From positions 1,110,273-1,174,272 of the forward strand of contig OZ247431.1 of the NCBI GenBank assembly GCA_965232875.1: a stretch of DNA of 64,000 nucleotides. The letters run 5' to 3'. Under the pieces are notes generated by a model. It was not told the DNA's origin. It did not search any database and saw only the letters and a program-made list of their open reading frames with translations. The stretch comes from Dehalococcoidia bacterium. Its GTDB lineage: Bacteria; Chloroflexota; Dehalococcoidia; Bin125. A program made the translations under genes and the position numbers. Below are positions 540 through 24,605 of the stretch, in pieces. Each line of letters starts with the position of its first letter. Within the stretch, counting starts at the first letter, position 1.

Positions 540-2063
540 TTATTGCAGATCCTCCGCCACGCGTTCGCCGATCATGATGGCGGTCAAGTTGGTGTTGCAG
601 CTGACGATGTCAGGCATGATTGAGGCGTCGGCGACTCTCAGGTGTTCGGTCTGATGGACTCGGCCTCTCTGATCGGTGACGGCCAGCGGGTCGGTCGAGC
701 GACCCATCCGCGCCGTGCCGCAGATATGCCAAGTCGTTGAGGTGGTTCGGCGGACGTAGTCTGCCAGGGCGTTGTCTGACTCCATCACCTCAGGTCTCGG
801 TGCAATCACGCGTTCGGTGAACTGCGCGATTTTGCCCGAGTGCATGATCTCCCAGCAGAGCCGCGCGCCGTCCATCAGCCGGCGCAGATCCTCGGGGTGC
901 GAGGCGTAGTTCATGTCGAGCTGCGGCTGCTCCGACGGGTCTGTCGAGCGCAGCGTCACTGAGCCGCGCGAGAGCGGACGCTGAATCACCGCGCCGATGC
1001 CAAACGACGGATGCTGCCGCGGCGCCTCCGTCAGGCCGCGCACCTGTTCCTCGTCCCAGATCGTCGAGATCGCGAGTTGCATGTCGTTGAACAGATCGGA
1101 GCCGGGCGCGGTGTATCGCACGCCGATCTCGGTGACCACGTCGGGGTCATGCACAACATCGGGCTTGGGGAACGCCTGCACGCCGGTACCGAAGTGATCG
1201 ATCAGGTTCTCGCCGACGCCCGGCAGGGCCACGCGTTGCTTGATTCCGTGAGGCGAGAGCTTCTCCGCCGGACCAATCCCGCTACGCATCAAGATTGCCG
1301 GCGACACTGCCGATCCAGCCGAGACGCAGACGCGGTCGCTGTTGATGACTTCGCTGTCGCTGAGGATCACGCCGTTGACGCGAGCGCCGGAGTCGCCGTC
1401 GAAACTCAGTTTGTCGACCAACACGCCGTGCCGAATGGTCAGATTCTCGCGGTCGCGGATTCCGAGCAGGTAGGCAATGTTGGTTGAGATGCGGTTGCCG
1501 TTGCTGCGATTGCGCGGCCACGGTCCGACGCCGGTCGCATCGGGCAGGTTGTGGTCCCAGACATCGTCGAATCCGTTGCCGCGGCAGGCGTCGTAGAAGG
1601 CGCGCTGCAGCGGTTGCCAGTTTCCGGATGGCTCACGTTCGATCGGAACGGGACCAGATTGCCCGTGGAAGTCGCCGCCTTCAGGATCAGATTCGAGGCG
1701 TCGGTAGTAGGGCAGGACATCCTCGAAGCGCCACTCGTCGCAGCCGTGCGCGACCCACGACTCGAAGTCGCCGGGTACGCCGCGCAGAGCGATCGTCCCG
1801 TTGACCGCCGACGAACCGCCCATCACCTTGCCCCGATGCAGCGGAAACTCGCGACCATGCCGGGCATTGGCCTGGAATCCCCAGTCGTGATCGCGCCACG
1901 AGACCCATGGCTTGAGCAGGTCACGAGGCATGTCCTCGACGCGGGTGTAATCCGGCCCAGCCTCAAGCAGCAATACCCTCCGATTCGGGTCCTCGGACAA
2001 CCGAGCCGCAATCACCGCTCCCGCCGATCCTGCGCCGATGATGATGTCGTCGTACGTTGCCAT
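540..2063 (-). CDS. GMC-family FAD-dependent oxidoreductase (choline/alcohol dehydrogenase-like)
   Basis: 507 aa. N-terminal Rossmann DIIIGAGSAGAVIAARLSE...VLLLEAG. Typical GMC C-terminal region with active-site His (HICGTARMG). Family-wide similarity. Confidence 0.9.
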   Translation of the reverse strand: MATYDDIIIGAGSAGAVIAARLSEDPNRRVLLLEAGPDYTRVEDMPRDLLKPWVSWRDHDWGFQANARHGREFPLHRGKVMGGSSAVNGTIALRGVPGDFESWVAHGCDEWRFEDVLPYYRRLESDPEGGDFHGQSGPVPIEREPSGNWQPLQRAFYDACRGNGFDDVWDHNLPDATGVGPWPRNRSNGNRISTNIAYLLGIRDRENLTIRHGVLVDKLSFDGDSGARVNGVILSDSEVINSDRVCVSAGSAVSPAILMRSGIGPAEKLSPHGIKQRVALPGVGENLIDHFGTGVQAFPKPDVVHDPDVVTEIGVRYTAPGSDLFNDMQLAISTIWDEEQVRGLTEAPRQHPSFGIGAVIQRPLSRGSVTLRSTDPSEQPQLDMNYASHPEDLRRLMDGARLCWEIMHSGKIAQFTERVIAPRPEVMESDNALADYVRRTTSTTWHICGTARMGRSTDPLAVTDQRGRVHQTEHLRVADASIMPDIVSCNTNLTAIMIGERVAEDLQ

Positions 2064-2183
2064 AGTGTCCCCTACTTGCGTCCCGATCCGTGGGCTGAGG
2101 ATACGTCAGCATTGCGCCGGAACTTGATCAGCGAGGCGAGATCATCCGATAACGTGACGCAGAGCAATACCAGCGTCCTCGCC

Positions 2184-2346
2184 TCCGTCATTCCTGCGAA
2201 GGCAGGAATCACGAAACACCCATGTCGTCAACGAGACTGGGCAATGACGTACCTCATCCTCAGCAAGCGGAGATCGGGGTACAGCGAGACGCTTTGCCGC
2301 TATCGATGAACCGAGGATCGTGATTCCTGCCTTCGCAGGAAAGACG
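2184..2346. repeat. MITE-like composite: two inverted copies of a ~29-bp hairpin unit (CCGTCATTCCTGCGAAGGCAGGAATCACG at 2184-2212; CGTGATTCCTGCCTTCGCAGGAAAGACG at 2319-2346) flanking ~100 bp
   Basis: Each unit is a perfect 8-bp stem hairpin, and the two units are reverse complements of each other. Same family recurs at 52752-52780 and 54584-54612. Located in the divergent intergenic region between the GMC gene and the CoA-transferase gene. Confidence 0.6.
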
Positions 2347-2382
2347 AAACAACGAGAAATCGGGGAAGTGTTGAGGACTTGA

Positions 2383-4830
2383 GTGAGCGACTCCATGCCT
2401 GACGATCTGGTCCCGGCGTATGAAGGCTTGGTCGTCGTCGATCTGTCGCGACGATTGTCCGGCGCCTTCGCAGCGCGACTCTTTGCCGATCACGGCGCCG
2501 ACGTCGTGATGCTGGAGCCGCCAGAGGGTCATCCCTTGCGGCATGAAGCGCCGTTCCTCAACGACGAACCGGGTGTGGAGCGTTCTGCGCTGCATGCCTA
2601 TGCCAACTGGAACAAGCGCTCGGCGATGATTGCCGATCCGTCCGAATCCGAGCCCTGGATTGCCGGCGCTGATGTCGTGATCACGACCGATGGCCCTGCG
2701 GCGCTCGCGGCCTGGCCGCTGTCGGGGATGCGATCCGACGCGGTGCATCTCTCGGTGACGCCCTTTGGACTGGATGGCCCGCTGGCCAACACCCCAGGAG
2801 GCAACCTGACGATCAATGCGCGCTGCGGCTGGGCCTACATCAATGCGATGCAGGACGACGCTCCGGTGACGCTGCCCTCTCGACAGACCGGCCTCGTTGG
2901 CGGTCTTGCTGCGTTCGTGGCAGGGTCGGCGGCGCTGAGACGCCGATGGGAATCGCAGCTGCCAGAGGTGTGCGATGTTCGTGAGATGGAGGCGCTGACC
3001 CACACTGGCTATCCGTGGTCAATCGGCGCGATTTACCAGGGCATTGGCTGGTCGCGCGGCGCAGCCGGCGGTCGTCCTCGCGGAGAGCCCGGTCCGCTGT
3101 TCGACGCCGCCGATGGACATATGAACTTCGGCTTCGGCGACTGGCACAACTGGCAGCAAGCGATGGAGCTGTTCAATCTGCCCGACCAGGCTGCGCGCGA
3201 AGAGCTGCATGCGCACGACGGCCGTTACTCGAAGGACCTCGAACCGGTCCGAGCTGGCGTCGCCCGTGAACTAGTCCAGATCGAAAAGTGGCCGCTGTTT
3301 CACAGCCTGGCCAAGCTGCGTTGCATCTCGGGCGTGCTGCAGACGATCCCTGAACTGGTCGAACACGAACAACTGCTATCGCGAGACTTCATCGTCGAGA
3401 CCGAGTTGGACGGCGAGACGGTCCGGGCGTCAGGCAATCCGCACCCGACTTCGCCACCGAGTTGGTCGCTGCGATCTCCGGCACCAGCACTGGGCTCCGA
3501 CACCGAAGGTCCGCTGAAATCCAATGCCGTGCCAACCGAGGTCGCTGCAACAGCAACGGGTCCGTTGGACGGCGTTCGCATCCTCACATTCACCCAGGCC
3601 TGGAGTGGCACCTTCTGCACGGAACTGTTGGGCTTCCTCGGCGCTGACGTCGTGCAGATTGAGGCTTTGCAACGGGTCGACATATGGCGCACGGTAGGTC
3701 CCCGGGTGCCGAACGCCATTCTGGACAACGCGAAGCCACAACACCCCCTCAACACTCAGGGCCTCTACAACGCGGTCAATCTGAACAAACGAGCAATCAC
3801 ACTGGACCTGCGCTCGGACGAGGGCAAAGAGCTGTTCTGGCGAATGGTTCCCCAATTTGATGTCGTCGCCGAAAACTTCCGCCCCGGCGTCCTCGATGGT
3901 TGGGGCATCACGCTGGACGCCCTGGCTGAACAGCGCCCCGACATCATCCTGGCCAGGATCTCCGGCTACGGTATCACCGGCCCCTATGCGCCATATCCCG
4001 CGAACGGCGCGACCACTGAGCCGATGTCTGGGTTGTCGTCGATTCACGGGTATGAAGACGAACCGGGCATGAACACCGGTGGTCTCTATCCCGATCCGAT
4101 CTCTGGATACTCGGCTGCGTCCGCAATCATCGCCGCCATCGCTCGGCGAGCACGCGTCGGTGGACCGCAGGAGATTGATGTCGCGATGCTCGAAGCGATG
4201 GGCATTGTGGTCGGCGATGCCATCGCCGAATACGATGCGACCGGCCGGACTCCAGGGCCGCTTGGCAATCACGACCGACAGCGGGCCCCGCACAATATCT
4301 ATCCCTGCACCGGCGACGATGAGTGGGTCGCCGTCTCCGTGGAATCGGACGACGAGTGGCGAAGTCTGTGCCTGGAAATGGACGCCGCCGGTCTCTCCGA
4401 GGATGCGCGATTCGCCGATGCCGCATCGCGCAAGGCGAATGAGTCGGCGCTGGATACGATCGTCGCGGAGTGGACCTCAGCGCAGGACTCAACGGACGTG
4501 GAGCGACGATTGCTCGGGATAGGCATCGACGCGGCGCGTGTGAATCCGATGTACGACCTGTTCGGTTCGCCTGATCCGTATCTGGAATCGAGTGGCTTCG
4601 TCCAGTCAGTCGATCACCCAGAGGTCGGCCCCTCGTGGTTGCCGGGAGCCCCATGGCGCTTCAGCGGATCGGAAGATCGCCTGCTGAGACCGGCGCCATG
4701 CGTGGGTGAGCACTCGTTCGAGGTGTTGTCGCAAGAGCTGGGCATCAGCGAAGCTGAGTATCGATCGTTGGTGGAGCGCCGCATCACAGGAACGCTGTAC
4801 GAGGCCGCGGAGGCAGCGACAGCAGACTGA
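2383..4830 (+). CDS. Fused tandem family-III CoA-transferase (two CaiB/BaiF domains in one 815-aa polypeptide)
   Basis: N-terminal half LEGLVVVDLSRRLSGAFAARLFADHGADVVMLEPP and second half GPLDGVRILTFTQAWSGTFCTELLGFLGADVVQIE. Both match the CaiB/BaiF/Frc N-terminal signature. GTG start with GAGGA 5 nt upstream. Confidence 0.85.
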   Translation: MSDSMPDDLVPAYEGLVVVDLSRRLSGAFAARLFADHGADVVMLEPPEGHPLRHEAPFLNDEPGVERSALHAYANWNKRSAMIADPSESEPWIAGADVVITTDGPAALAAWPLSGMRSDAVHLSVTPFGLDGPLANTPGGNLTINARCGWAYINAMQDDAPVTLPSRQTGLVGGLAAFVAGSAALRRRWESQLPEVCDVREMEALTHTGYPWSIGAIYQGIGWSRGAAGGRPRGEPGPLFDAADGHMNFGFGDWHNWQQAMELFNLPDQAAREELHAHDGRYSKDLEPVRAGVARELVQIEKWPLFHSLAKLRCISGVLQTIPELVEHEQLLSRDFIVETELDGETVRASGNPHPTSPPSWSLRSPAPALGSDTEGPLKSNAVPTEVAATATGPLDGVRILTFTQAWSGTFCTELLGFLGADVVQIEALQRVDIWRTVGPRVPNAILDNAKPQHPLNTQGLYNAVNLNKRAITLDLRSDEGKELFWRMVPQFDVVAENFRPGVLDGWGITLDALAEQRPDIILARISGYGITGPYAPYPANGATTEPMSGLSSIHGYEDEPGMNTGGLYPDPISGYSAASAIIAAIARRARVGGPQEIDVAMLEAMGIVVGDAIAEYDATGRTPGPLGNHDRQRAPHNIYPCTGDDEWVAVSVESDDEWRSLCLEMDAAGLSEDARFADAASRKANESALDTIVAEWTSAQDSTDVERRLLGIGIDAARVNPMYDLFGSPDPYLESSGFVQSVDHPEVGPSWLPGAPWRFSGSEDRLLRPAPCVGEHSFEVLSQELGISEAEYRSLVERRITGTLYEAAEAATAD

Positions 4831-4867
4831 ACCAGGGACCGGTATAGACCCCGGGCCCGTTTTACAT

Positions 4868-5082
4868 GATTCAGTCCCCGCTGTACGGAGACCCTTGCAA
4901 AACTTCCGAATCCCCTCTCCCCCCCTTGCGGGGGAGATGTCACGGAGTGACAGAGGGGGGGTCGGCTGATGATGACCAGGTGAGGCTCCCGAACAGCGCC
5001 CTCCCTGCCTTCGGCATCTCCCCCGCAAAGGGGGGAGAAGGGGAGTTATTCCAAGGTCTCCGTAGAGCGGGAACTGGAACTG
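4868..5082. repeat. Copy A of a ~200-bp long imperfect palindromic repeat element (nested hairpins)
   Basis: Inner arms CTCCCCCCCTTGCGGGGGAGATG / CATCTCCCCCGCAAAGGGGGGAGAAG. Central palindrome GTCACGGAGTGAC. Outer arms CAGTCCCCGCTGTACGGAGACC / GGTCTCCGTAGAGCGGGAACTG. Near-identical copies at 12352-12535 and 62893-63075. Sits immediately 3' of the CoA-transferase stop. Confidence 0.75.
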
Positions 5083-5169
5083 AAGCCCTTGAAGAACGAT
5101 GGCGCTGATATCGTAGCGACAGTTGACGAGACTGAATTCGCTTCGTCCCGACTAAATCTGGAGTGATGT

Positions 5170-8100
5170 ATGCCGCCGAGTGGATCTGTGTCGCCCGTTT
5201 CCAAGCTGTTGATTGCCAATCGTGGCGAGATTGCGATTCGTGTGGCTCGTGCGGCCTCCGATCTGGGCATTGCCACCGTCTCCGTCTACTCCAAGGACGA
5301 CGCCAGGTCTCTGCACGTTCACGCCGCCGATGAAGCGGTCGAGCTCGATGCGCTGGGCGTCCAGGCATACCTCGACATTGACGGCCTGATTGCGGCCGCG
5401 CAATCGACCGGCTGCGACGCGGTGCATCCCGGTTACGGATTCCTGTCAGAGTCGGCAGAGTTTGCCCGACGCTGCCGAGATGCAAGCATCACCTTCGTCG
5501 GTCCGACAGCGCATCTGCTCGATCTGTTCGGGGACAAGGTCCGCGCCAGGCAGGCTGCGAGAGAAGCCGGCGTGCCGGTGATTGAAGGCTCCGACCAGGC
5601 AGTCACCCTGAGCGAAGCGGTTGACTTCTTCGAGTCGCTGGGCGAAGACGCGGCGGTGATGCTCAAGGCGGTAGCAGGCGGCGGCGGACGAGGCTCGCGG
5701 GCAGTCACCGACATCAACGAAATGGAGGCCGCCTGGGAGCGCTGCGAGTCCGAGGCGCGCATGTCGTTCGGCTCCGGCGCGCTGTACATCGAGCAGCTCA
5801 TTCCCCGCGCCCGACACATCGAAGTGCAGGTGATTGGAGACTTGCACGGCGGTGTCGGTCACCTGTGGGAGCGCGAGTGCTCGGTCCAGCGGCGATTCCA
5901 GAAGATCGTGGAGATCGCGCCGGCGCCACACCTGGAAACATCCACGCGCGAAGCCATCGTCGAGGCGGCCGTACGTATCGCACGCGACGTGGGCTACTCG
6001 TCTCTGGGCACGTTCGAGTTCCTGTTGGACGCCTCAGACGGCTCGAATGACGCCTTCTTCTTCCTCGAGGCGAACGCGCGACTACAGGTCGAGCACACCG
6101 TGACCGAACAGGTCACCGGCGTCGACCTGGTCCAGTCGCAACTGCGAGCTGCGCAAGGCGCATCAATCTCCGACCTCGGCCTCGACGATCCGTCCTGGCT
6201 GCGTCCACGTGGGTTCGCGATTCAGACCCGCGTCAACATGGAAACACTCACGCCCGACGGCTCGGTGCGTCCGGCGTCAGGCACGCTCAAGGCTTATGAG
6301 GCGCCCTCTGGGCCGGGTGTGCGCACCGACGGCTTCGGCTACGTCGGCTACCAGACATCTACTTCGTTCGACTCGCTGCTGGCGAAGGTGATCGCGCACG
6401 CTCCGGCGCCAAGATTCGAGGATGCGTTGACGCGCTCGTTGCGCGCGCTGTCCGAGTTCCGGATTGAAGGCGTCGCGACGAACATCCCGTTCCTCACCAA
6501 CGTGCTGGAGCATGCCGACCTCGTCGAAGGTCGTGTCCACACTCGCTGGGTCGACGAGCAGATGGCCGAGTTGGCGACGTTCAATGGCGCGCAGCGCGTG
6601 CGCTATCTGCAAGCGGAAGCACCGACGGCCGACAGCGGGTTCGCCGGCGCGCGCGTTGATTCGCGTGATCCATTGGCGCTCTTTCAGCACGATCAGGAAG
6701 TCAAGCAGCAGCAGTCCTTGCAGGTCGTCGAGGAAGAGGCGCCGGACTTGACCGGTCCGGAAGGCTCAATCGGTCTGCCCGCGCCGATCCAGGGCACGAT
6801 CGTTTCGATCATGGTCGAAGAGGGTCAGGAAGTGCGGAAGGGCCAGGACCTCGTCGCGATGGAAGCGATGAAGATGGAGCATGTGATCTCCGCCGACCGC
6901 GACGGGATCGTCAAGGCGTTGGGCTGCTCCATCGGCGATGTGATCCGTGAAGGCTTCCCACTCGTCTTCATCCTCGAGGCGGAAGTCTCGGTCGAGGCGA
7001 TCGGTGACGACGACCTGATCGACCCCGATTTCATCCGACCCGACCTACAGGAAAACTACGACCGACACGCCTACACGCTGGACGAAAATCGGCCCATCGC
7101 TGTGTCCAAACGTCGCGGACGCGGCTACCGCATGCCGCGCGAGAACATTGAACAACTCGTCGATCCGGGTTCATTCCAGGAATACTGGCCGCTGATCGTG
7201 GCGCGTCAGCACCAGCGCAATACCGACGAGCAACTGAGAGAGAACACACCTGCCGACGGTCTGCTCGCCGGTACGGCGACGATCAATGGCGACCTGTTTG
7301 ACGATGAGCGGGACGCCCGCGCGATTGTCGTGCATTACGACTACACGGTGCTCGCGGGCACGCAGGGCGGTCGCAATCACTACAAGCAGGACCGCATGTT
7401 TGAAATGGCGCGCCGCTTCAACTTCCCCATTGTCTTCTACACCGAGGGTGGGGGCGGAAGGCCCGGCGACGACCGGACCGGTCCCGGCGTGGCGTTCGAT
7501 ACCTACACGTTCACGCAGTTTTCGAAGCTCTCGGGCCAGGTGCCGCTGGTCGGTGTGACCAATGGTCGCTGTTTCGCCGGCAACACGGCGCTGCTTGCCT
7601 GCTGCGACGTGATCATCGCCACTGAAGGCTCAACCGTCGCGATGGGCGGTCCGGCAATGATCGAGGGCGGCGGCCTCGGCATCTATACGCCGGAAGAGGT
7701 CGGACCGATGTCGTTCCAGGTCCCGAATGGTGTGGTCGACATCCTCTGCAAGGATGAGGAAGAGGCGACCGATATCGCCAAGAAGTATCTGAGCTACTTC
7801 CAGGGACCGATCAAGGAATGGACCGCGCCCGATCAGCGCCGTCTGCGCCACATCGTGCCTGAGAACCGGTTGCGTCTCTACGACATGAAAGAGATCATCC
7901 ACACGATCGCCGATGAAGGCTCGGTGCTGGAGATTCGCGAGAAGTTCGGGATCGGGATCATCACTGCGTTCATCCGCGTCGAGGGACATGCGATCGGCGT
8001 GATCGCGAACAACCCGCATCACCTGGCCGGCGCGATCGACTCTGACGGCTCGGACAAGGGCGCGAGATTCCTGCAGCTCTGCGACGCGTTCGATATCCCC

Positions 8101-8592
8101 GTGCTCAGTCTGATGGATTGCCCCGGCATGATGGTCGGCCCCGATGTCGAAGCGACGGCGCTGGTGCGTCACTGTGCACGGATGTTCAACACCGGGGCCA
8201 ACTTGAGTGTGCCGCTGTTCGGCGTGGTCGTGCGCAAGGCGTATGGACTCGGAGTCCAGGCGATGTGCGGGGCCAGCGCGCTGGTCGGATTCTTCACTGT
8301 CGCCTGGCCGACGGCCGAGTTCGCCGGCATGAACATCGAAGGTTCAGTGAAGCTTGGATATCGCAAAGAACTCATCGCGATCGAGGACCCCGAGGAGCGG
8401 ATCGAGACCTACGAGCACATGGTGGCGCGAGCGTACGACAACGCCAAAGCAGTCAACTCAGCCGCCGGCGGTGGTCTCGATGATGTGATCGATCCCGCAG
8501 ACACGCGCGAGTGGATTGCCAACGGCCTCAAGCGCCTCCCGCCAACGCCAGAGCGCACTGGCAAGAAGCGTCCCTACATCGATACGTGGTAA
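5170..8592 (+). CDS. Single-chain multidomain biotin-dependent acyl-CoA carboxylase (BC - BCCP - CT)
   Basis: 1140 aa. N-terminal biotin carboxylase (LIANRGEIAIRVARAASDLGI..., ATP-grasp). Biotinyl domain with the EAMKMEH biotinylation motif near residue 560. C-terminal ~520-aa carboxyltransferase domain (propionyl-CoA carboxylase beta-like, GGGRPGDD). RBS GGAGTGA precedes the start. Confidence 0.9.
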   Translation: MPPSGSVSPVSKLLIANRGEIAIRVARAASDLGIATVSVYSKDDARSLHVHAADEAVELDALGVQAYLDIDGLIAAAQSTGCDAVHPGYGFLSESAEFARRCRDASITFVGPTAHLLDLFGDKVRARQAAREAGVPVIEGSDQAVTLSEAVDFFESLGEDAAVMLKAVAGGGGRGSRAVTDINEMEAAWERCESEARMSFGSGALYIEQLIPRARHIEVQVIGDLHGGVGHLWERECSVQRRFQKIVEIAPAPHLETSTREAIVEAAVRIARDVGYSSLGTFEFLLDASDGSNDAFFFLEANARLQVEHTVTEQVTGVDLVQSQLRAAQGASISDLGLDDPSWLRPRGFAIQTRVNMETLTPDGSVRPASGTLKAYEAPSGPGVRTDGFGYVGYQTSTSFDSLLAKVIAHAPAPRFEDALTRSLRALSEFRIEGVATNIPFLTNVLEHADLVEGRVHTRWVDEQMAELATFNGAQRVRYLQAEAPTADSGFAGARVDSRDPLALFQHDQEVKQQQSLQVVEEEAPDLTGPEGSIGLPAPIQGTIVSIMVEEGQEVRKGQDLVAMEAMKMEHVISADRDGIVKALGCSIGDVIREGFPLVFILEAEVSVEAIGDDDLIDPDFIRPDLQENYDRHAYTLDENRPIAVSKRRGRGYRMPRENIEQLVDPGSFQEYWPLIVARQHQRNTDEQLRENTPADGLLAGTATINGDLFDDERDARAIVVHYDYTVLAGTQGGRNHYKQDRMFEMARRFNFPIVFYTEGGGGRPGDDRTGPGVAFDTYTFTQFSKLSGQVPLVGVTNGRCFAGNTALLACCDVIIATEGSTVAMGGPAMIEGGGLGIYTPEEVGPMSFQVPNGVVDILCKDEEEATDIAKKYLSYFQGPIKEWTAPDQRRLRHIVPENRLRLYDMKEIIHTIADEGSVLEIREKFGIGIITAFIRVEGHAIGVIANNPHHLAGAIDSDGSDKGARFLQLCDAFDIPVLSLMDCPGMMVGPDVEATALVRHCARMFNTGANLSVPLFGVVVRKAYGLGVQAMCGASALVGFFTVAWPTAEFAGMNIEGSVKLGYRKELIAIEDPEERIETYEHMVARAYDNAKAVNSAAGGGLDDVIDPADTREWIANGLKRLPPTPERTGKKRPYIDTW
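8541..8592. repeat. Left copy of a 52-bp imperfect direct repeat (last 17 codons plus stop of the carboxylase gene)
   Basis: GCCAACGCCAGAGCGCACTGGCAAGAAGCGTCCCTACATCGATACGTGGTAA. Matches 9654-9705 at 48/52 positions. Confidence 0.8.
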
Positions 8593-8596
8593 TCGC

Positions 8597-9649
8597 TACA
8601 TGCACTGGCTGGCATTTCTGGCGCTATTGACCACGATCATCTTCGGGGCTTGCGCCGACGATGAGCCGCCCGATGATTCGACCCCTCGTCCTGAGCGTCA
8701 AGAGACTGATTCCCCCAGTACCCCACCTACGATCGATGAGATCGAAGGTGAGACGCTCGCCGACATCATGCGCATACTCTATCGGCGCCAGATGAGATCG
8801 CATCCCACAGTCTGTGCGTATGTGCTGGGTACGGGCGTCTACGGTGTGAGCCAAGCGCTTGACCGAGACACGCACCCAGCGCAGATAGTGGCTGACCTTG
8901 TGGAGGGTTGGACAGGAAGCATCTGGATCGGCGAGTTTGGGGACTATGAACTCTCCTGGACGGAGCTGCAGCGAATTGTGCTGGTCGCTCCAGACGGGGT
9001 CTCCCTGCCGCATCAGGGCTTCTATGACACAATCGGCGACGCCCTGGAATTCAAGTACATCCGAGGTAAGTTTGAGCTGACTATGATCGGACGTCTCTTC
9101 GATTGTAGCGATCCGAACGGCGCCTATCCCGATGGAATCGGCGAACTCGCTCAGCGTCACAGCGAAGATGAGGGGTTGTTCGTCTATGACGTTGAGGAAG
9201 TGGTCGACATTGAACACGGTACAAATAGTCACGTTGATCAGAGGTACTCGATCCTGGAGGTCGCCGATCACAATGATTGGCCTCCTGCGGTTGATCTGCC
9301 TGTGTTGGCCGACCTGTTGACGGAAACGGCGCGCGAGCATTGGTCATCGGAATTCGTCTGTGTGAGTGTGACGAGGCGGCCGGTCGATTCGGGCGAAGCC
9401 GGGACTGGTTTGACGGCTGACTCGCCGCTGCCCGAAGCATTCCTGCGAATTTTCGACGAGCTCCGATTCGACCCTGAGCAGGCGACACTGCTGCTGATCG
9501 GGACACGCAACATTGTCCTCGCCTGGGTCGAGTCGTATAACGACGCCGGCAGAGTGACTGCAGCCGAGTTCGTCAAGAGCGAAGACGGCAATTGGTCCGA
9601 ACGGACTTGGGTGTCCATGTATGGATGTGGCCCACTGGGCAGTGAGTAG
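8597..9649 (+). CDS. Hypothetical lipoprotein (MHWLAFLALLTTIIFGAC lipobox), 350 aa
   Basis: ORF with signal peptide plus Cys. Start placed at the ATG just after the carboxylase stop; the track's upstream start overlaps the carboxylase frame. Appears somewhat less GC-rich by eye. Flanked by the 52-bp direct repeats. Confidence 0.6.
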   Translation, partial: YMHWLAFLALLTTIIFGACADDEPPDDSTPRPERQETDSPSTPPTIDEIEGETLADIMRILYRRQMRSHPTVCAYVLGTGVYGVSQALDRDTHPAQIVADLVEGWTGSIWIGEFGDYELSWTELQRIVLVAPDGVSLPHQGFYDTIGDALEFKYIRGKFELTMIGRLFDCSDPNGAYPDGIGELAQRHSEDEGLFVYDVEEVVDIEHGTNSHVDQRYSILEVADHNDWPPAVDLPVLADLLTETAREHWSSEFVCVSVTRRPVDSGEAGTGLTADSPLPEAFLRIFDELRFDPEQATLLLIGTRNIVLAWVESYNDAGRVTAAEFVKSEDGNWSERTWVSMYGCGPLGSE

Positions 9650-9653
9650 CGTC

Positions 9654-9705
9654 GCCAACGCCGGGGCGCACCGGCAAGAAGCGTCCCTACATCGATACGT
9701 GGTAA
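9654..9705. repeat. Right copy of the 52-bp direct repeat; encodes ...PTPGRTGKKRPYIDTW* in frame, i.e. a second copy of the carboxylase C-terminus
   Basis: GCCAACGCCGGGGCGCACCGGCAAGAAGCGTCCCTACATCGATACGTGGTAA. Confidence 0.8.
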
Positions 9706-9839: not shown

Positions 9840-10475
9840 GTGAAGGGTTGGGTCGGCTGGCTCGGCCGCAGCATTGGAGTTGCGGCGCTCCTGCTGGTGT
9901 TGGGGCTGACCCTGCCGCAACCCTCTAGCGACGCCGCGCAGGGCACGAAGTCGTGGGCGTCAAGCACGGTGTACTTCGAGCGCAAAGGAGACTGGTCCAG
10001 CGTTCCGAACAGCTATCGGAATGCCGTGCTTCGAGCGGACAACGAATGGGCCGACAACACCCGCTGGAATCCAATCATCACCGCGAGCCCGGCACACAAC
10101 GGCATCTACTGGGGTAATGACGAAGATCCATGGGCCTCTCGAAGTTGCACTCCGCCAGTTTCAACTTCCGATGCGTTCGGCAAGGAATGTAAGCGATTCG
10201 TCCCTGGGAGGATCACTAACTCGGAGATCATGTTGAATGCGGCCAGGTCATGGGATAGCGATCGTGTTCAGGGTGTCATGACTCACGAGCTTGGGCACTC
10301 AGGAGGCTTGACCCACGATCCGGTTTACACAGCAGAGATCCCGAGCACCTCGACCTGTCAGTCCACGAATCAGCATCGTTGGACGATGTGCTCGAAGTTC
10401 TTGGACGACAACGCATCCTGGGCGGCTAGCACCGAACGGCATGATCGCGATGATGCCGACGCGATGTACCCGTAG
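9840..10475 (+). CDS. Secreted metzincin-type zinc metalloprotease (snapalysin/M7-like small neutral protease)
   Basis: Signal peptide. Extended zinc-binding motif HELGHSGGLTHD (HExxHxxGxxH). C-terminal Met-turn-like ADAMYP. 211 aa. Confidence 0.75.
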   Translation: MKGWVGWLGRSIGVAALLLVLGLTLPQPSSDAAQGTKSWASSTVYFERKGDWSSVPNSYRNAVLRADNEWADNTRWNPIITASPAHNGIYWGNDEDPWASRSCTPPVSTSDAFGKECKRFVPGRITNSEIMLNAARSWDSDRVQGVMTHELGHSGGLTHDPVYTAEIPSTSTCQSTNQHRWTMCSKFLDDNASWAASTERHDRDDADAMYP

Positions 10476-10517: not shown

Positions 10518-11060
10518 ATGTCTACCTCCAGACTCAACCGACTGACAGGAGCTAGGTGGCTTCGGATCGGGATCTTGGTGATCGTCGTTGCCGCGGCCAC
10601 GGCCGTCTGGCTGACTCGATCAGGGGAGCGCCCGGTGCTCGCGATCGCGCACATGTCGCTTAACGAGATCGAGTCGCAATTGTATGCGGAGCTCAAGGCG
10701 ATTCACGGCCGCGAAGTTTGCGGCATCGAGGAAACTTCAACGCCAGACGCCAGCGGCTACAGCAGCAACCTCGTCTCGGAGCACGAGAACGGCCTACCGT
10801 CCCAGCGAGTCATCGAATGGCTCGAAGAGTCTGAGCACAGCTTCGACCAGGTCGACGACTATCAATTGTCCGGGTCAAGCGTGGTGTTTCTCGCCTATGC
10901 AGAAGACCGCAATGAGGACAGCCTCGTCACGTTGGTTAACGGTGATCAGGTACATGCCAACGTCGTGGTGGTGCACGCTCTGTCGGGCGGGAACAGAGGC
11001 GAGGATCGCTGGGAGATCGTTCACGGTGCTTCGTACTGGATTTGCGATCCGTTGGAGTAA
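10518..11060 (+). CDS. Hypothetical N-terminally membrane-anchored protein
   Basis: 180-aa ORF with one N-terminal TM helix (WLRIGILVIVVAAATAVWL). No recognisable family. Confidence 0.5.
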   Translation: MSTSRLNRLTGARWLRIGILVIVVAAATAVWLTRSGERPVLAIAHMSLNEIESQLYAELKAIHGREVCGIEETSTPDASGYSSNLVSEHENGLPSQRVIEWLEESEHSFDQVDDYQLSGSSVVFLAYAEDRNEDSLVTLVNGDQVHANVVVVHALSGGNRGEDRWEIVHGASYWICDPLE

Positions 11061-11213
11061 CGAACCCAGCCCAAGCGGCCAGCGGCGAGGAGACTCGTTG
11101 CTGGGCGGTTATCGTTGAGAGCCGATCGGACATTCGACCGAAGTGTCGATCTCGTCCGAGGTGTCGGAGAAGATGCGGCGAACTGCCGCAGCGACTCCGC
11201 CTGTGTTGGAAGG

Positions 11214-11720
11214 ATGTCTTTCACGGTGCGCCGCCTGCTTGCTAGTTTGTTCGCGGGCGCAATCGTTGCAACTTTGAGCGCTGCCTGCGGCGCTGCCGAC
11301 GACCGAGGGCAGAACTCGGTCGACCAAGCCCAGTTCAGCTTGGTCGGCCTCGATGGACACGAGGCGACGCAAGCGGTCTACGAGCGCGTGGGCGAACGGT
11401 ACGGCCTCGATTGCGAGCAGAGTTGGGAAGCGTCGCTCGATGTCACCGGACTCGATCCCAACTACCCCGAAGCGAGCGGTCTAGCGGACGGTTCGGAGCC
11501 GACGCCGGAGATCCTCGACGCGATTCGAGAGGCGGGTAGCCATCCCGACTCCTTCGAGCACTGGTACGTGACATCGACACGTGCGGTGTTCGCGTCGTTC
11601 GAGATTGAAGAGGGCTGGAACGCGCTGCCGGAAGTGATTCAGGTCTTGTGGCTCGGCTACGACGCGGAAGGCACGCCGCGCTGGGGCGCCGATTACGGAG
11701 CGTTGCTGGGGCCATGTTGA
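11214..11720 (+). CDS. Hypothetical lipoprotein (MSFTVRRLLASLFAGAIVATLSAAC)
   Basis: ORF with lipoprotein signal. Start moved to the internal ATG that carries the signal peptide. No family assignment. Confidence 0.5.
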   Translation: MSFTVRRLLASLFAGAIVATLSAACGAADDRGQNSVDQAQFSLVGLDGHEATQAVYERVGERYGLDCEQSWEASLDVTGLDPNYPEASGLADGSEPTPEILDAIREAGSHPDSFEHWYVTSTRAVFASFEIEEGWNALPEVIQVLWLGYDAEGTPRWGADYGALLGPC

Positions 11721-12351: not shown

Positions 12352-12535
12352 TTTGGTTGATTCCCAGTCCCCGCTTCACGGAGGCCTCTGCAAAACTCCC
12401 CTTCTCCCCCCTTGCGGGGGAGATGTCACGGAGTGACAGAGGGGGGGCGGCTGATGACGACCAGATAGGGCTCCTGAACAGCGGACCCCCCTCTGCCTTC
12501 GGCATCTCCCCCGCAAGGGGGGAGAAGGGATTCGA
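12352..12535. repeat. Copy B of the ~200-bp palindromic repeat element (lacks the right outer arm)
   Basis: CAGTCCCCGCTTCACGGAGGCC...CCTTGCGGGGGAGATGTCACGGAGTGACAGAGGGGGGG...GGCATCTCCCCCGCAAGGGGGGAGAAGG. Confidence 0.75.
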
Positions 12536-12607: not shown

Positions 12608-13072
12608 CTAGGTCTGCGGCGGCGGATCAACCAACGCAAACGTCAAGCGACCTTCCGCAGCGGTCTCCCCCTCGACTGTCGCTTTGGCGCTGGCTCGTCC
12701 GATGCCTCGGCGCAGACGATCCATTTCCACTTCGAGTCTCAGTTGATCTCCCGGCACGACCTGGCGTCGGAAACGGACGCCGTCTATTCCGGCGAAGAGA
12801 CCTAGCTTGCCCTTGAACTCGTCAGCCGACAGAGCCGCGACGGCGCCGGTCTGGGCGAGCGCTTCGATGATCAACACGCCGGGCATGATCGGATTGTCGG
12901 GGAAGTGACCCTCAAAGAACCACTCGTTGGTCGTCACGTTCTTGAGACCGACCGCGCGTTTGCCCGGCTGCAGTTCGACAATCCGGTCGACCAGCAGGAT
13001 TGGGTATCGGTGGGGGATGATGCGACGAATGTCTCGTACATCCAGCGGCAGTTCGTAGTCGGCCATGGTCAC
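12608..13072 (-). CDS. fabZ: 3-hydroxyacyl-ACP dehydratase FabZ
   Basis: Hot-dog fold signature [19 protein letters not shown], 154 aa. Confidence 0.9.
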
Positions 13073-13899
13073 AGGTCCTTCAGGATGTTGATGATCTGTT
13101 CGGCGGCATAGTCGGGCATCGGCACGTTCGCCGGACGAATCTCGTCGGGATGCAGTCCGTGATAATCGGAGCCAATGGTCGGCGTTAAGCCAAGCGTTCT
13201 GGCGAGCCGCTGGCCGTTCGCGATCTCGTCTGGTCCGTCGTTTCGGTAGTAGATTTCGAGACCGTCGCCGCCCGCGTCTGCAAAGGCAATTGTTGCGCTC
13301 GTCGGCTCGTCATAGCGGGTGGGATGCGCCAGGGAGGCGAATCCGCTGGCTGCGTGGATCATTGCCAACGAGTCGGTCAGACTCAACAGTGCCCGAGGAA
13401 TGTAAGCAGGGCCGTCGTTACGTAGGAATCGATTGAATGCATCCGGAACAGACTCGACATGCCCGGCCTCGACGAGCGCCCGCGCTATGTGGGGACGGCC
13501 AATCGATGCTCCGTCGGCGATCGCGGCGACCCGCTCGTAGTCAATCTCGAGTCCAAGTTCGCTCAATCGCTCCACGGTTCGCCTCGCCCGAGACTGGCGT
13601 TCATGACGGTAGTCGGCGAGTTGGCGCTCGAGGTCGGCAAGTGGGGCATTCGCCGCGAAATAGCCGAGCACATGCAACTCGCCGAGTACCGGGTCATTGA
13701 CGCCGATTTCGACTCCCGCGATCACTTCGACGCCTCGTCGGCGGCCTTCCGCCTGCGCAATCTCGACGCCTAACAGGGTGTCATGATCGGTGAGCGCCAA
13801 TAGTTCAGCGCCACGCTCGGCGGCTTGCTGCACAACCCACTCTGGCGGCTTCACGCCGTCGGAGTGAGTGCTGTGCGTATGCAGGTCGAGCCGCGCCAC
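13069..13899 (-). CDS. PHP-domain metal-dependent phosphoesterase (TrpH/YciV family)
   Basis: N-terminal [12 protein letters not shown]...ALTDHD motif. Confidence 0.8.
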
Positions 13900-13932
13900 A
13901 GGCCGCCTTGCACCTTCCAGCTAGCGGGCCAG

Positions 13933-15423
13933 CTAGCGGGCGTACTCGGCGGCGCGGGTTTCGCGCAGGACGGTGACGCGAATCTGGCCGGGGTATTGCA
14001 GCGATTCCTCGATCTGCTTCGAGATGTCCCGCGCCAGTCGCATCGCGCCGAGATCGTCAATCTCGCGCGGGTCAACGACGACGCGCACTTCACGGCCGGC
14101 CTGGATGGCGTACGCCTGTCCGACGCCTTCGAAGGACGTCGCGATGTCCTCTAGCGCGCGTAGTCGTTCGATATAGCGCTCGACAGATTCCCGTCGTGCG
14201 CCCGGGCGACCGCCCGAAATGGCGTCGGCCATCTGCACGATGATCGCCTCGACTGAGCGAATCTCGACTTCGTCGTGGTGAGCTTCGATGCAGTGCGCGA
14301 TGTTCTCAGACATCTTGAACCGGCGAGCCAGATCGCCACCGATGATGGCGTGCGTGCCTTCGACCTCATGGTCGATCGCCTTGCCCACGTCATGCAGCAG
14401 TGATCCGCGTCGCGTGACTTCGACGTCCGCGTGGATCTCTTGCGCGATCATCGCGCCGATGTGTGCGGTCTCGACCGCGTGTCGGAGCTGGTTCTGTCCG
14501 TAGCTGGTGCGGAAACGCAGGCGGCCGAAGATATCGAGCATTTCGCGCGGCAGCCCACTGCAGTGCGCCTCGATCGCCGCTTCGTCGCCCGATTCGCGAA
14601 TGATGCGGTCGACATCGCGCTGCGCCTTGGCGACGGTTTCCTCAATCCTTGTCGGGTGGATACGTCCGTCGGCGACGAGCCGGCTCAGCGACAAACGACC
14701 GATCTCACGACGTACCGGATCGAACCCGGACACTGTCACGACATCAGGTGTGTCGTCGATGATCAGATCGCAGCCGAGCGCAGATTCGAGAGCGCGGATG
14801 TTTCGGCCCTCTCGTCCGATGATGCGTCCCTTCATCTCGTCGGAGGGGATTTGCACCACCGAGACGGTTGATTCCGTCGTGACCTCTGAGGCGACACGCT
14901 GAATCGCCGTGGCGACAATCTTGCGTGCGCGGGTTTCGGCCTCGTCCTTCGCCTTTTGTTCGGCCTCACGGACGAGACGGCCGGCTTCATCGGAAACTTC
15001 CTGCTCGACTCGCTCGAACAGCACGGTGCGCGCTTCGTCACGGGTGAGGTTGGAGATTTCTTCCAGCCGCTGGTCGTGCTCGGCTTCGCGCTCGTCGAGC
15101 TGGGCGCCGCGACGCTGAAGTCGCTGGCTGTCGCGATTCAGCTTGGAATCGCGGTCGTCGAGCGATTTGACCCGGTCATCCAACGAAGCTTCGCGCCGGT
15201 CAAGGCGATCCACGGCTCGCTGTAGGTCGTCACGCGCCCCGCGAACATCCGCGAGGATCTGGTCTCGTTCAGCTTGCGCTTGTTCCCGCGCGTCTTCTAA
15301 CCGCTCACGCGCCTCCCGATCGGCCTGTTCCCGGGCCTGTTGGATGATGCGTTCGGCTTCGAGCGTGGCCTCGATCCGTGGATCTGGCCCGCCGCGCAGG
15401 AGCCGCATAATGGCTCCCCACAT
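13933..15423 (-). CDS. rny: Ribonuclease Y (KH + HD domains)
   Basis: KH region NDEMKGRIIGREGRNIRALE. HD region LLHDVGKAIDHEVEGTHA. C-terminus IRVTVLRETRAAEYAR matches RNase Y. No N-terminal TM helix appears in this ORF. Confidence 0.9.
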   Translation of the reverse strand: MWGAIMRLLRGGPDPRIEATLEAERIIQQAREQADREARERLEDAREQAQAERDQILADVRGARDDLQRAVDRLDRREASLDDRVKSLDDRDSKLNRDSQRLQRRGAQLDEREAEHDQRLEEISNLTRDEARTVLFERVEQEVSDEAGRLVREAEQKAKDEAETRARKIVATAIQRVASEVTTESTVSVVQIPSDEMKGRIIGREGRNIRALESALGCDLIIDDTPDVVTVSGFDPVRREIGRLSLSRLVADGRIHPTRIEETVAKAQRDVDRIIRESGDEAAIEAHCSGLPREMLDIFGRLRFRTSYGQNQLRHAVETAHIGAMIAQEIHADVEVTRRGSLLHDVGKAIDHEVEGTHAIIGGDLARRFKMSENIAHCIEAHHDEVEIRSVEAIIVQMADAISGGRPGARRESVERYIERLRALEDIATSFEGVGQAYAIQAGREVRVVVDPREIDDLGAMRLARDISKQIEESLQYPGQIRVTVLRETRAAEYAR

Positions 15424-15601
15424 GGTGTCCTCTGCTCAATTGGGTCGGCATTGCCGTTGCGTTGCCTGTTGTCACGTTGAATCTCGCTCTGCCGGGCCTG
15501 TCGTACCGGTTGAGGCTGCCCGGTTCCAACATGGGCAGGTCGTCGACAGGTGGTCAGTAGCACCCAGAGTACGCCCGTTGACGATCCAGCGCTAGTGACG
15601 A

Positions 15602-16129
15602 TTATTCGAGTTCGGACCACGCCTGTCGTAACGCTGCGTCGGTGTCCGCCATAGCGAATCCACGCAGCGAGAGGCGCCTGGTGTGCAAACGCCGATACCT
15701 GGCCCAGGTCAAGTCAGGGTCGCGTTCCAGCGTCAGACGAAGATTGCGGCGGGCAATCTCCAGCGCGACGGCGTAGTCGCTGAGGTCTCCCTGTGCTTCG
15801 AGCGTGTCCAGTGCAGTGTCTGCGTCCTGTTTCGCGATGCCGGCCATCTGCAGTTTGACCGCGATTTCCTGCCGGCTGTACCGATGCCTGGCTGCCAGAC
15901 GTTGGGCTTCGTGTATTGCGAGATCGTGAGACGCCGATTCGCGCAGCCGATCGATGAAGACTGGATCAATCTGCTGGCCACGCTCGATCCTCGAACGTTG
16001 AGCGAACTCGCGGGTGCAGCGAATGGAACTGCCGTCGTCAAAGTCGACCGTTGACAGTGCGCCGATGGGTCGGATTGAGACGACAGCAGTCATTGTTCGC
16101 TCCGCGTTGAGTCGCGTCTGGCTGCTCAA
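15602..16129 (-). CDS. recX: RecA regulator RecX
   Basis: 175 aa. Position immediately downstream of recA plus RecX-like helical repeats. Confidence 0.75.
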   Translation of the reverse strand: MSSQTRLNAERTMTAVVSIRPIGALSTVDFDDGSSIRCTREFAQRSRIERGQQIDPVFIDRLRESASHDLAIHEAQRLAARHRYSRQEIAVKLQMAGIAKQDADTALDTLEAQGDLSDYAVALEIARRNLRLTLERDPDLTWARYRRLHTRRLSLRGFAMADTDAALRQAWSELE

Positions 16130-16137
16130 TGAGCTCG

Positions 16138-17373
16138 TTAGCTAGCTCGTGCTCGGCCTTTCTTCTTGGGCGGGGGTTTGGTGATCGGTGTCGCCTTGGG
16201 AGCGCCTTCTGCAGCCATCAGCGACTTGGCGGTGGGTAGGCCGCGTTCTTCGCGGATGCGCGCTTCGATCTCCTCTGCCATGTCAGTGTGTTCGCGCAGG
16301 AAGGCCTTAGTCCGTTCGCGACCCTGGCCGAGTCGCGTTTCGCCATAGGAGTAGAAGGTGCCCTGCTTCTTGATCACCGACGGTGTGCCGGTCGGAGAAC
16401 CCGGCGTCGGTTCGATCCCAAGGTCGATCAGGCAGCCGGTCTTGGAGATGCCGTACTCGTTGGCCGTGAACATGAGATCAAACTCGGCCGTGCGGAACGG
16501 CGGCGCAACCTTGTTCTTGACGACTTTCGCCTTGACCCGCGAGCCAATCACGAGCTGTCCATCCTTCAGCGTCTCAGCGCGACGCAGTTCGATTCGGACC
16601 GAGGAGTAGAACTTGAGTGCGCGGCCGCCGGGTGTGGTCTCGGGGTTGCCGAACACGATGCCGACCTTTTCCCGCAACTGGTTGATGAAGATCAAGACTG
16701 TTTTGGAGCGTGCAACCACGCTGGTGAGTTTGCGCAGAGCCTGCGACATCAGACGCGCTTGCAGGCCGACCTGCACATCGCCCATTTCCCCTTCGATCTC
16801 AGCTCGCGGGACCAGCGCAGCTACCGAGTCGACGACGACGACATCGATTGCATTACTGCGAACCAGCGCTTCGGCAATCTCCAGCGCCTGCTCGCCCGTG
16901 TCCGGCTGGGCAATGAGCAATTGTGAGATATCGATTCCCAGCCGTCCGGCGAATTCAGGATCCAGCGCATGTTCGACGTCGACGTATGCAGCCTGACCGC
17001 CCAGGCGTTGCGCCTCGGCGATGACATGTTGGGCCACGGTTGACTTTCCGGCCGATTCCGGTCCGTAGACCTCAACGATGCGACCACGAGGTAGTCCGCC
17101 GATGCCAAGCGCGACATCAAGCGACAACGCGCCGGTTGGTATGCCGTCGACGACGAGACGTGAACCGGTGTCGCCGAGGCGCATCAGGGCGCCTTCGCCG
17201 AAGCGTCGTTCCATATCGCCGAGCAGCTCTTCAACCGCGGGCGGAGGTTCGTTTGCCGCTTCGTCCGACTTGTTGCTGGACTTGCTGTTGGTTGTGGTCA
17301 TGGGCAGTGGCTCTTGTGCATCTGTCGCCAGAGCGATGGGCTCGACGCCGTTGTCGGTCTTGCTAGGTGTCAT
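16138..17373 (-). CDS. recA: Recombinase RecA
   Basis: GPESAGKST Walker [53 protein letters not shown]- and C-terminal extensions with an acidic tail. The true start may be an internal Met. Confidence 0.95.
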
Positions 17374-17690
17374 AATATGCGCTCCTCCTCGTAGCTGAGT
17401 TTGGTCGGCGAGTGGCGTTCCTGAGAACGCCTGTGCTTCGTAAGTTACGAAAGACGCGCGCTAATGTCAAGCAAACGTTCGGCGTTAGTTGTGTTGGGAT
17501 TCGGAGAGGAAATTTGAGGCCGAAACCACGGATTCGGCGGTGTGGGCTGCGAAATGGGCCGCGGACTGTTCAGATTTGTCCAGATCAGTCCAGATTTCTC
17601 CAGATTCGGACAGTATCTGAATAGATTCGGCCAGCTTTCGTTGTGCTTTCAGCATGATTTCTCGGCTGGAGTCGGAATGGCCGGTTGAGA

Positions 17691-17957
17691 TCAGGTGCTG
17701 GTGAGCAGCGCTCTACTGATGATTTGCAGGACGATCAGCGCAACCAGAGGCGAGAGGTCCATCATCCCGATGACCAGGAAGCGGCGCAGCGGTGCCAGCA
17801 CCGGCTCCGTGACGTCGAGTAGGACCTTGACGAGCGGATTGGACGGATCGAGCGGCCGGTTGGTGAACATCGGCACCCAGCTCATCAACACTCGCGCGAG
17901 CAGGATGAAGGAGTAGATCTGGATCGTGATACCCAGGATGCGCAGGACTTCGGTCAT
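17691..17957 (-). CDS. YggT-family membrane protein
   Basis: 88 aa, two TM segments. Conserved position next to proC/yggS. Confidence 0.75.
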   Translation of the reverse strand: MTEVLRILGITIQIYSFILLARVLMSWVPMFTNRPLDPSNPLVKVLLDVTEPVLAPLRRFLVIGMMDLSPLVALIVLQIISRALLTST

Positions 17958-21196: not shown

Positions 21197-21314
21197 GTGA
21201 TCCGTTGCAACGTTGTTCCAACAATGTCAGACCAGCAGATCGCACCGACCTTCAGGCGGCAATCTCTGTCACACCTCCCGCCGACCACCGTCATACCACT
21301 ACCAACCACCGTCA

Positions 21315-21327
21315 CCCCCCCCCCCCC
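21315..21327. repeat. Homopolymeric C13 tract in the moaB/radical-SAM intergenic region, adjacent to CCGTCAT-type hairpin repeats
   Basis: GTCACCCCCCCCCCCCCGCC. Flanked by ACCACCGTCA direct repeats and the hairpin CCGTCATACCCGCGCTTGCCGCGGGTATCTCG (21328-21359). Confidence 0.7.
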
Positions 21328-21473
21328 GCCGACCACCGTCATACCCGCGCTTGCCGCGGGTATCTCGCCGCGTTCTCTACGACCGTTGAGCACACGTCGA
21401 GATTGCCGCGCCGGAGCGCGGCAATGACGGATCCTGCTGGCCTTGTCTCAACAGCCGCTTGTTTATCGCTGCG

Positions 21474-21971: not shown

Positions 21972-22231
21972 GTCGGCTGTTCTATCTGGTTGTTCTGAGT
22001 TTCTCAGTCGAAGTTATCCACATTATCCACCACTGGTGACATCTCTTGAGGGCCTGATCCGCCAATTTTGTGGACCAATTTCGTTCCCATTCGGGAACTG
22101 GGATCGATTTCCCTGAGTTTGGCCTTGAAATCTCTTCCATAATGTGCATACAGTGCGTTATCGGCAGACAGATGGGGACAAATGGGAATCGCGGCATAAC
22201 GTGAACAGGAAGGGCACACAGGGCTTCAATC

Positions 22232-24580: not shown

Positions 24581-24605
24581 GTGGTGATGCGGAAAGGACA
24601 GGGCA

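Follow-up and report, generated by a model that had tools for sequence, protein, structure and literature searches.

A tandem family III CoA-transferase with one predicted catalytic centre is linked to a single-chain acyl-CoA carboxylase in Dehalococcoidia and in more distant bacteria

What joins a fused CoA-transferase, a biotin-dependent carboxylase and a flavin-dependent oxidoreductase that lie side by side in the genome of a sponge-associated bacterium? The question is raised by a stretch of 64,000 nucleotides (the window) from a Dehalococcoidia bacterium (assembly GCA_965232875.1, contig OZ247431.1, positions 1,110,273-1,174,272 of the forward strand), in which a GMC-family oxidoreductase gene is followed, divergently, by genes for an 815-residue CoA-transferase and a 1140-residue acyl-CoA carboxylase. 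A Pfam search found all three open reading frames (ORFs) intact, with the coordinates and domains first assigned to them (Table 1). The carboxylase is of the LCC type (for long-chain acyl-CoA carboxylase), and the conserved coupling of a tandem, apparently one-site family III CoA-transferase to such an enzyme seems to be new, although each component is of a known kind; no description of the pairing was found in a literature search that combined both terms, nor in a search on fused family III transferases.

By its architecture, its full-length homology and the grouping of its carboxyltransferase (CT) domain, the carboxylase belongs to the LCC type. The Pfam domains follow one another in the order Biotin_carb_N (residues 10-116), CPSase_L_D2 (122-334), Biotin_carb_C (352-462), Biotin_lipoyl (538-600) and Carboxyl_trans (649-1121), and the biotinylation motif, EAMKME with Lys568, fits the pattern (A/V)MKM. 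The solved LCC (PDB code 4rcn), a chain of 1093 amino acids with the same order of biotin carboxylase (BC), biotin carboxyl carrier protein (BCCP) and CT parts, matched the whole carboxylase (E=0, 1030 bits, residues 11-470 and 532-1117), as the initial annotation had expected in assigning all three functions to one LCC-like chain; further matches were to 5h80 and 5fif, the two halves of a single-chain carboxylase from Deinococcus radiodurans. The CT domain alone scored 605 bits against 4rcn and 553 bits against 5fif, compared with 237 bits for the best 12S or propionyl-CoA carboxylase (PCC) beta subunit and at most 131 bits for MCC/GCC. Similarity therefore falls from LCC through the alpha-carboxylating PCC/12S enzymes to the gamma-carboxylating MCC/GCC enzymes, and the domain stands apart from ordinary propionyl-CoA carboxylases; grouping with them would have counted against the annotation. 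The annotation also took the architecture to be rare, a description that PMC6491548 applies to LCC-type carboxylases as well, in a passage that leaves their ties to carbon and nitrogen metabolism vague. With at least 8000 candidates in a protein search and at least 567 genome stretches confirmed, the single-chain LCC-like architecture is not rare. In the summary given in PMC6491548, LCC enzymes take C2-C16 acyl-CoAs in vitro, and the same source describes, second-hand, a homohexameric holoenzyme with a kinetic preference for long-chain acyl-CoA.

The CoA-transferase is likewise a genuine protein of two fused CaiB/BaiF domains, as first proposed. Full-length relatives, with 804-856 aa and 52-92% identity, number at least 120, and these stem from many assemblies, including complete long-read chromosomes; the tandem length (~780-880 aa) also occurs in nearly all (more than 130) of the best 150 cluster representatives at 50% identity. 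The ORF is unbroken, with a Pro/Ser/Ala-rich and poorly conserved linker between the halves, and a single-chain AlphaFold2 (AF2) model of the whole protein reached a pLDDT of 88.7 and a pTM of 0.93, a confidence that points to a fixed mutual arrangement of the two halves. Identity between the halves is only 24%, and they are conserved to much the same degree among relatives (0.73 for the N-terminal and 0.75 for the C-terminal half). The closest solved enzyme is BbsEF, the succinyl-CoA:(R)-benzylsuccinate CoA-transferase (9fn0, 9fol), a heteromeric member of family III whose chains A and B match the N-terminal and C-terminal halves in that order: the best solved relative of the N-terminal half is chain A (9fn0_A, 2.8e-21) and that of the C-terminal half is chain B (about 1.7e-51 to 6.7e-52). 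In a fold search with the model, the BbsEF chains were again the top matches, with a target-normalised TM of 0.90-0.91; SUGCT, FRC and YfdE also matched, and values across the four enzymes ranged from 0.8 to 0.9.

The two halves do not, however, appear to be equivalent. Asp571 in the C-terminal half aligns without gaps with Asp178 of BbsEF chain B, the residue named in the structure 9fol ('D178-CoA adduct'), and it does not vary among 59 aligned relatives or among the nine tandem proteins compared, which come from five phyla or classes. The equivalent position in the N-terminal half is occupied by Ser166 and varies in 61 relatives and in eight of nine tandem proteins from other taxa, the residues seen there being S, R, H, G and L, with D in Haematobacter only. 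A fused homodimer with two sites should carry the catalytic aspartate in both halves, and the N-terminal half carries a serine instead. The invariance of Asp571, set beside the free variation at position 166, thus leads us to regard the transferase, as judged from its residues, as a covalent pseudo-heterodimer with a single catalytic centre in the C-terminal half, so that the 'covalent dimer' of the initial annotation stands as two fused domains but not as a homodimer. The protein also departs from BbsEF in several respects: the BbsEF subunits are separate, whereas the halves are fused here; identity is only 26-29%; chain A has Asp167 where the N-terminal half has Ser; and the window locus has no linked bbs-type beta-oxidation genes, its partner being a carboxylase.

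Two segments of the model deserve separate mention. The motif YPANGATTEPMSG (residues 538-550, C-terminal half) is invariant, its poorly modelled part being residues 542-547 (window 4006-4023), and its Glu546 is kept in all nine tandem proteins compared; a Gly-rich loop in the N-terminal half (residues 226-233/234) is invariant at Gly226, Gly229 and Arg233. These are the only internal segments of the model with pLDDT below 50 and, because both are invariant yet poorly modelled, they are candidates for mobile active-site lids.

In order to see how far the three genes travel together, we fetched 80 genome loci on the basis of the carboxylase and searched them for CoA-transferase and GMC neighbours, counting only loci with enough flanking sequence (for the CoA-transferase, 33 loci with an LCC at least 77% identical and 40 with an LCC below 77%; for the GMC gene, 33 and 36, respectively). 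Identities are to the window proteins, and a GMC neighbour was counted as present at 60% identity or more to the window GMC protein. The CoA-transferase lies directly upstream of the LCC gene in 33/33 loci of the first group, all from Dehalococcoidia or Chloroflexota and many of them named sponge metagenome bins, and in 12/40 loci of the second, which include five from Gammaproteobacteria and unclassified Pseudomonadota. When the transferase was taken as the starting point, an LCC gene was found directly downstream in 13 of 25 full-length metagenome loci. The tandem transferase also adjoins an LCC in Cupriavidus metallidurans CH34, where the order at NC_007974.2, 1643000-1648796, is LCC, transferase and then a TctC receptor, in C. 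necator N-1 and in Cupriavidus EM10; in Haematobacter the two genes are adjacent but divergent. The adjacency of transferase and carboxylase claimed at the outset was thus borne out, whereas the transferase does not 'immediately' precede its partner in the window, the two being separated by a 339-bp spacer that holds an element resembling a miniature inverted-repeat transposable element (MITE). No account of LCC with a conserved tandem partner of this kind was found in the literature searched.

Elsewhere, the place of the transferase is taken by an enzyme of another kind. An AMP-binding acyl-CoA ligase directly adjoins the LCC gene in D. radiodurans, where the window carboxylase has its CoA-transferase, and also in Tistrella, Acuticoccus, Rhodococcus opacus PD630 and Pseudosulfitobacter; in Paracoccus jeotgali, LCC is preceded on its own strand by the ligase gene and four ABC-transporter genes, in one apparent operon. 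A transporter or regulator is usually near these ligase-LCC loci of cultured bacteria. The uptake genes beside the pair, or beside LCC, comprise TctC (CH34), a TRAP transporter (Pseudosulfitobacter), ABC systems of the SBP_bac_5 type, TonB-dependent receptors (Gammaproteobacteria) and MFS transporters.

Some loci hold more than one such set of genes. In Anaerolinea sp. (PNKC01000038.1, 249-21396), three CoA-transferase and carboxylase modules lie within 21 kb: the first has a fused transferase, split CT and BCCP genes and a TetR gene; the second combines a fused transferase and an LCC with an ABC transporter; and in the third a pair of separate CaiB genes stands in front of an LCC paralogue (52%), with an SDR gene. 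A deep-sea Dehalococcoidia locus (CBDBJK010000038.1, 4799-20308) carries four single CaiB genes, a GMC gene (44% to the window GMC protein) and an LCC directly preceded by a gene for a CT domain alone, together with a tandem transferase (30%) in convergent orientation. At four further loci the LCC match was stretched to ~5 kb, perhaps because an additional CT-like gene lies upstream there too.

The third gene has a much narrower distribution. The GMC protein has an N-terminal FAD-binding motif, GAGSAG, and a C-terminal His446, and its best solved relative is choline oxidase (2jbv, 1e-73); choline oxidase and BetA share both GMC domains and the FAD-binding motif with it. Assignment as choline dehydrogenase BetA or as the mycofactocin dehydrogenase MftG was rejected, because the scores fell below the curated NCBIfam cut-offs (PRK02106, 391.6 against 605; betA, 359.8 against 732.1; MftG, 341 against 387.45). 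A GMC gene, 75-97% identical, was present in 33/33 loci with an LCC of at least 77% identity and in 0/36 loci with an LCC below that value. It thus joins the cluster as a third gene only in the close Dehalococcoidia clade, which is largely sponge-derived; it completes the group there, as first suggested, but not in the other lineages.

Taken together, these observations lead us to think it somewhat more probable than otherwise that the core unit is a two-gene module in which an imported organic acid is converted into its CoA thioester before being carboxylated at the alpha position. The CoA-transferase would first move CoA from a thioester donor, possibly succinyl-CoA or acetyl-CoA, onto the acid. 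Its sole competent active site is predicted to be built around Asp571 and, by analogy with heteromeric enzymes such as BbsEF, the N-terminal half, which lacks the nucleophile, may serve as the obligatory partner subunit of a putative interlocked fold. By homology to 4rcn, the BC domain of the carboxylase would then carboxylate the biotin on Lys568 with ATP and bicarbonate, and the CT domain would pass the carboxyl group on to the acyl-CoA at its alpha carbon, giving a 2-carboxyacyl-CoA (a substituted malonyl-CoA). In the close clade, the GMC flavoenzyme probably oxidizes the precursor or substrate at a hydroxyl or aldehyde group, and this is the weakest step of the scheme. The strongest argument that the transferase makes the substrate of the carboxylase is that non-homologous AMP-forming ligases replace it elsewhere; that the acid is imported is suggested by the transporters and regulators beside the pair, which vary. 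Of the pathway of acyl-CoA activation, oxidation and carboxylation that the initial annotation envisaged, the coupling of activation to carboxylation is therefore supported by adjacency across phyla and by ligase replacement, whereas oxidation by the GMC enzyme is confined to one clade.

Several points weigh against this two-gene reading. Nothing in the analysis identifies the substrate, the CoA donor or the product, and the 'unusual substrate' first invoked for the cluster stays a guess. No conserved downstream enzyme for a substituted malonyl-CoA was found at the loci, 28 of the 40 more distant LCC loci (~70%) have no transferase, and an LCC copy on a Pseudomonas aeruginosa plasmid has a LysR regulator as its sole neighbour of note. 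The interlocking of the two transferase halves is putative and was not seen directly, and the MITE-like element in the spacer leaves co-transcription of the transferase and carboxylase genes unproven at the window locus. Finally, conservation of LCC and GMC at the level of RecA and RNase Y, together with the nearby housekeeping block and its FabA/FabZ-like gene, fits a central rather than a peripheral role.

This last point also commends the view that the carboxylase is a housekeeping acetyl-CoA or propionyl-CoA carboxylase, serving fatty-acid synthesis or propionate assimilation, with which the transferase and GMC genes have little or nothing to do in function. In the syntenic clade, identities are 77-98% for LCC, 75-97% for GMC and 58-95% for the CoA-transferase, compared with 78-98% for RecA and 74-100% for RNase Y; LCC, at or above RecA across the clade, and GMC thus match core genes in conservation, while the transferase evolves faster. 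The LCC gene lies in a syntenic core block with the FabA/FabZ-like gene, RNase Y and RecA, many distant LCC homologues stand alone, and the C2-C16 range summarized in PMC6491548 would accommodate the short acyl-CoAs. We nevertheless regard this explanation as unlikely, because the adjacency of transferase and LCC outlasts both phylum borders and reorderings of the genes (transferase-LCC, LCC-transferase and divergent), because neighbours such as ligases, transporters and TetR/GntR/LysR regulators are characteristic of catabolic units induced by their substrate, and because two or three paralogous modules can occur in one locus. In addition, the essential multidomain acetyl-CoA carboxylase of actinobacteria (SACE_4237) falls in a different, eukaryote-like group, according to the account in PMC6491548.

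A second alternative starts from the tandem architecture itself, and would make the locus one of dimethylsulfoniopropionate (DMSP) and 3-hydroxypropionate catabolism, with a DddD-like DMSP CoA-transferase/lyase, a DddA-like GMC 3-hydroxypropionate dehydrogenase and a carboxylase handling C2/C3 acyl-CoA (propionyl-CoA or acetyl-CoA). DddA is a GMC-type flavoprotein, and DMSP is expected in sponge and marine environments; metagenome bins that are marine or named for sponges are the main source of the closest relatives of the cluster. A fused CaiB/BaiF chain is not without precedent, since DddD, described as the only characterized enzyme with two CaiB domains, has them in tandem at positions 1-416 and 439-821 (PMC7174347), as the window transferase has its own two. 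DddD has also been reported as the best Swiss-Prot match of CaiB paralogues in SAR202 bacteria (PMC5395668), and in Halomonadaceae dddD is clustered with dddA, the product of which oxidizes 3-hydroxypropionate (PMC9327192).

The likeness to DddD of Marinomonas, Halomonas and Endozoicomonas (~820-840 aa) drawn here is, however, one of architecture, and further tandem transferases, found in Proteobacteria and Actinobacteria, share just 27-32% identity with the window protein, so the tandem architecture alone does not imply DddD function. The tandem genes of Bosea and Neorhizobium stand in LacI, MR-MLE and ABC contexts rather than in ddd clusters, the Roseobacter plasmid matches are single-domain genes, NGR234 did not come up in tblastn searches of plasmids with the whole transferase, its N-terminal half or the Bosea tandem protein, and ten cluster representatives of the transferase all bear the generic name 'CoA transferase' from Chloroflexi or SAR202, none being named DddD. 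In place of dddT, dddB (or dddA), dddC and dddR, the window transferase has a carboxylase partner. No dddT (BCCT transporter), dddB/dddC or dddR was linked in any locus examined, and no BCCT, aldehyde dehydrogenase or LysR genes were found in the window or related loci, where only the GMC gene is linked, and in one clade only. The published ddd/acu gene sets and clusters that we compared contain no carboxylase, and the transferase-LCC pair occurs in soil Cupriavidus with TctC and in Gammaproteobacteria with TonB-dependent receptors, which are not DMSP uptake systems; the ligases that stand in for the transferase elsewhere argue for plain activation. On this evidence we consider a DMSP pathway very improbable. 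The idea that an assembly error or a frameshift created the 815-aa ORF by joining two adjacent CaiB genes can be rejected with near certainty on the full-length relatives, the cluster-representative lengths, the continuous frame and the confident model described above, even though unfused two-gene CaiB versions do exist, one directly upstream of an LCC paralogue and others on several plasmids.

The remaining features of the locus are collected in Table 1.

Table 1. Features of the transferase-carboxylase locus and its surroundings, in window coordinates.
Feature	Position	Strand	Remarks
GMC-family FAD oxidoreductase	540-2063	-	507 aa; GMC_oxred_N and GMC_oxred_C; divergent from CoA-transferase
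Divergent intergenic region, GMC/CoA-transferase	2064-2382		holds 29-nt inverted repeat, 2186-2214 / 2318-2346
Tandem CoA-transferase, whole	2383-4830	+	815 aa; two CoA_transf_3 stretches; whole-protein E=3.5e-133
CoA-transferase N-terminal half, predicted non-catalytic pseudo-subunit	2383-3540	+	residues 1-386; start GTG 2383 or ATG 2395
CoA-transferase C-terminal half, predicted catalytic	3553-4830	+	residues 391-815; Asp571 codon 4093-4095
MITE-like palindromic element	4872-5076		in transferase-carboxylase spacer, 4831-5169
MITE-like element, second copy	~12357-12521		
MITE-like element, partial copy	63016-63034		
LCC-type single-chain acyl-CoA carboxylase	5170-8592	+	1140 aa; Pfam domain order as in text
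Carboxylase BC part	~5197-6585	+	
Carboxylase BCCP part	~6775-6969	+	biotinyl-Lys568 codon 6871-6873
Carboxylase CT part	~7000-8559	+	
Strain-variable insertion	8593-9705		1113 bp
Direct repeat flanking the insertion	8540-8592 / 9653-9705		53 bp
Housekeeping block	12608-26534		FabA/FabZ-like dehydratase, PHP-domain protein, RNase Y, RecA, ProC, radical SAM
Housekeeping block, continued (cell-division cluster start)	within 12608-26534		MraW/RsmH, penicillin-binding protein

The spacer between transferase and carboxylase is typically ~40-150 bp in relatives, and those without the MITE-like element have short spacers. The element is ~205 bp long, and its G/C-rich terminal inverted repeats measure 36 nt (81%) and 28 nt (93%); its core, CCCCCTTGCGGGGGAGATG, has five matches in the window, where none is expected by chance. 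The arms of the 29-nt inverted repeat in the GMC/transferase promoter region are 97% complementary, and its core palindrome, ATTCCTGCGAAGGCAGGAAT, recurs at 52756-52775 and 54598-54617. No sigma-70-like promoter was found in the divergent intergenic region, and a scan for sigma-70 promoters and intrinsic terminators, which gave one of each, at or below the shuffle expectation, was uninformative.

The 1113-bp segment has its insertion point precisely at the carboxylase gene's 3' end and varies between strains: the site is empty in the related locus L010, occupied in L011, L012 and L042, and holds diverged filler in L024. The flanking direct repeats are 94% identical and contain the end of the carboxylase gene, including its stop codon; a duplication of 53 bp is longer than expected of a transposon target-site duplication. 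The insertion holds one ORF of ~350 aa with no family match (8516-9649), which overlaps the 3' end of the carboxylase gene. This ORF and those at 9840-10475, 10518-11060 and 11115-11720 were rejected as cluster members, since they have no family match above the cut-off and vary between strains; the 211-aa product of 9840-10475 gave weak, sub-threshold matches to the zinc metalloprotease families Reprolysin_5 and Peptidase_M10. On the other side of the cluster, a 45-nt stretch near the 3' end of the GMC gene is repeated (82%), at 2-46 and 588-632, beyond an ORF of 158 aa (47-523) that has no family match; the same ORF is present in L011 (96% identity), and other close relatives differ there. 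Downstream of the cluster, the housekeeping block is syntenic. Far outside it, a 602-aa ORF (51230-53038) has a SAICAR synthetase domain only in residues 313-568.

Within the two-gene reading, one further possibility is that the enzymes form a closed cycle: the substituted malonyl-CoA made by the carboxylase would donate its CoA to the next imported acid, so that CoA is used catalytically. Family III CoA-transferases typically handle dicarboxylates. We consider such a cycle distinctly unlikely but, if it were true, the net reaction would turn a free organic acid into a malonate-type dicarboxylate by ATP-dependent carboxylation, which would explain the modules of two genes and a carboxylate transporter, the choice of a family III partner and the role of LCC in nature; SAR202-type bacteria would then add carboxyl groups to dissolved organic acids.

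In the closest Dehalococcoidia clade, much of which is known from sponge-named metagenome bins, the triad is conserved like RecA, and so probably belongs to the core metabolism of these symbionts. The transferase would add a second functional context, besides that of DddD, for fused one-site family III CoA-transferases. LCC-type carboxylases have a solved structure and activity in vitro but an unclear physiological role, and their recurrent tie to an acid-activating enzyme (a tandem family III CoA-transferase or an AMP-forming ligase) and to a carboxylate uptake component offers a testable lead to that role, which becomes a concrete experiment in cultured Cupriavidus or Deinococcus.

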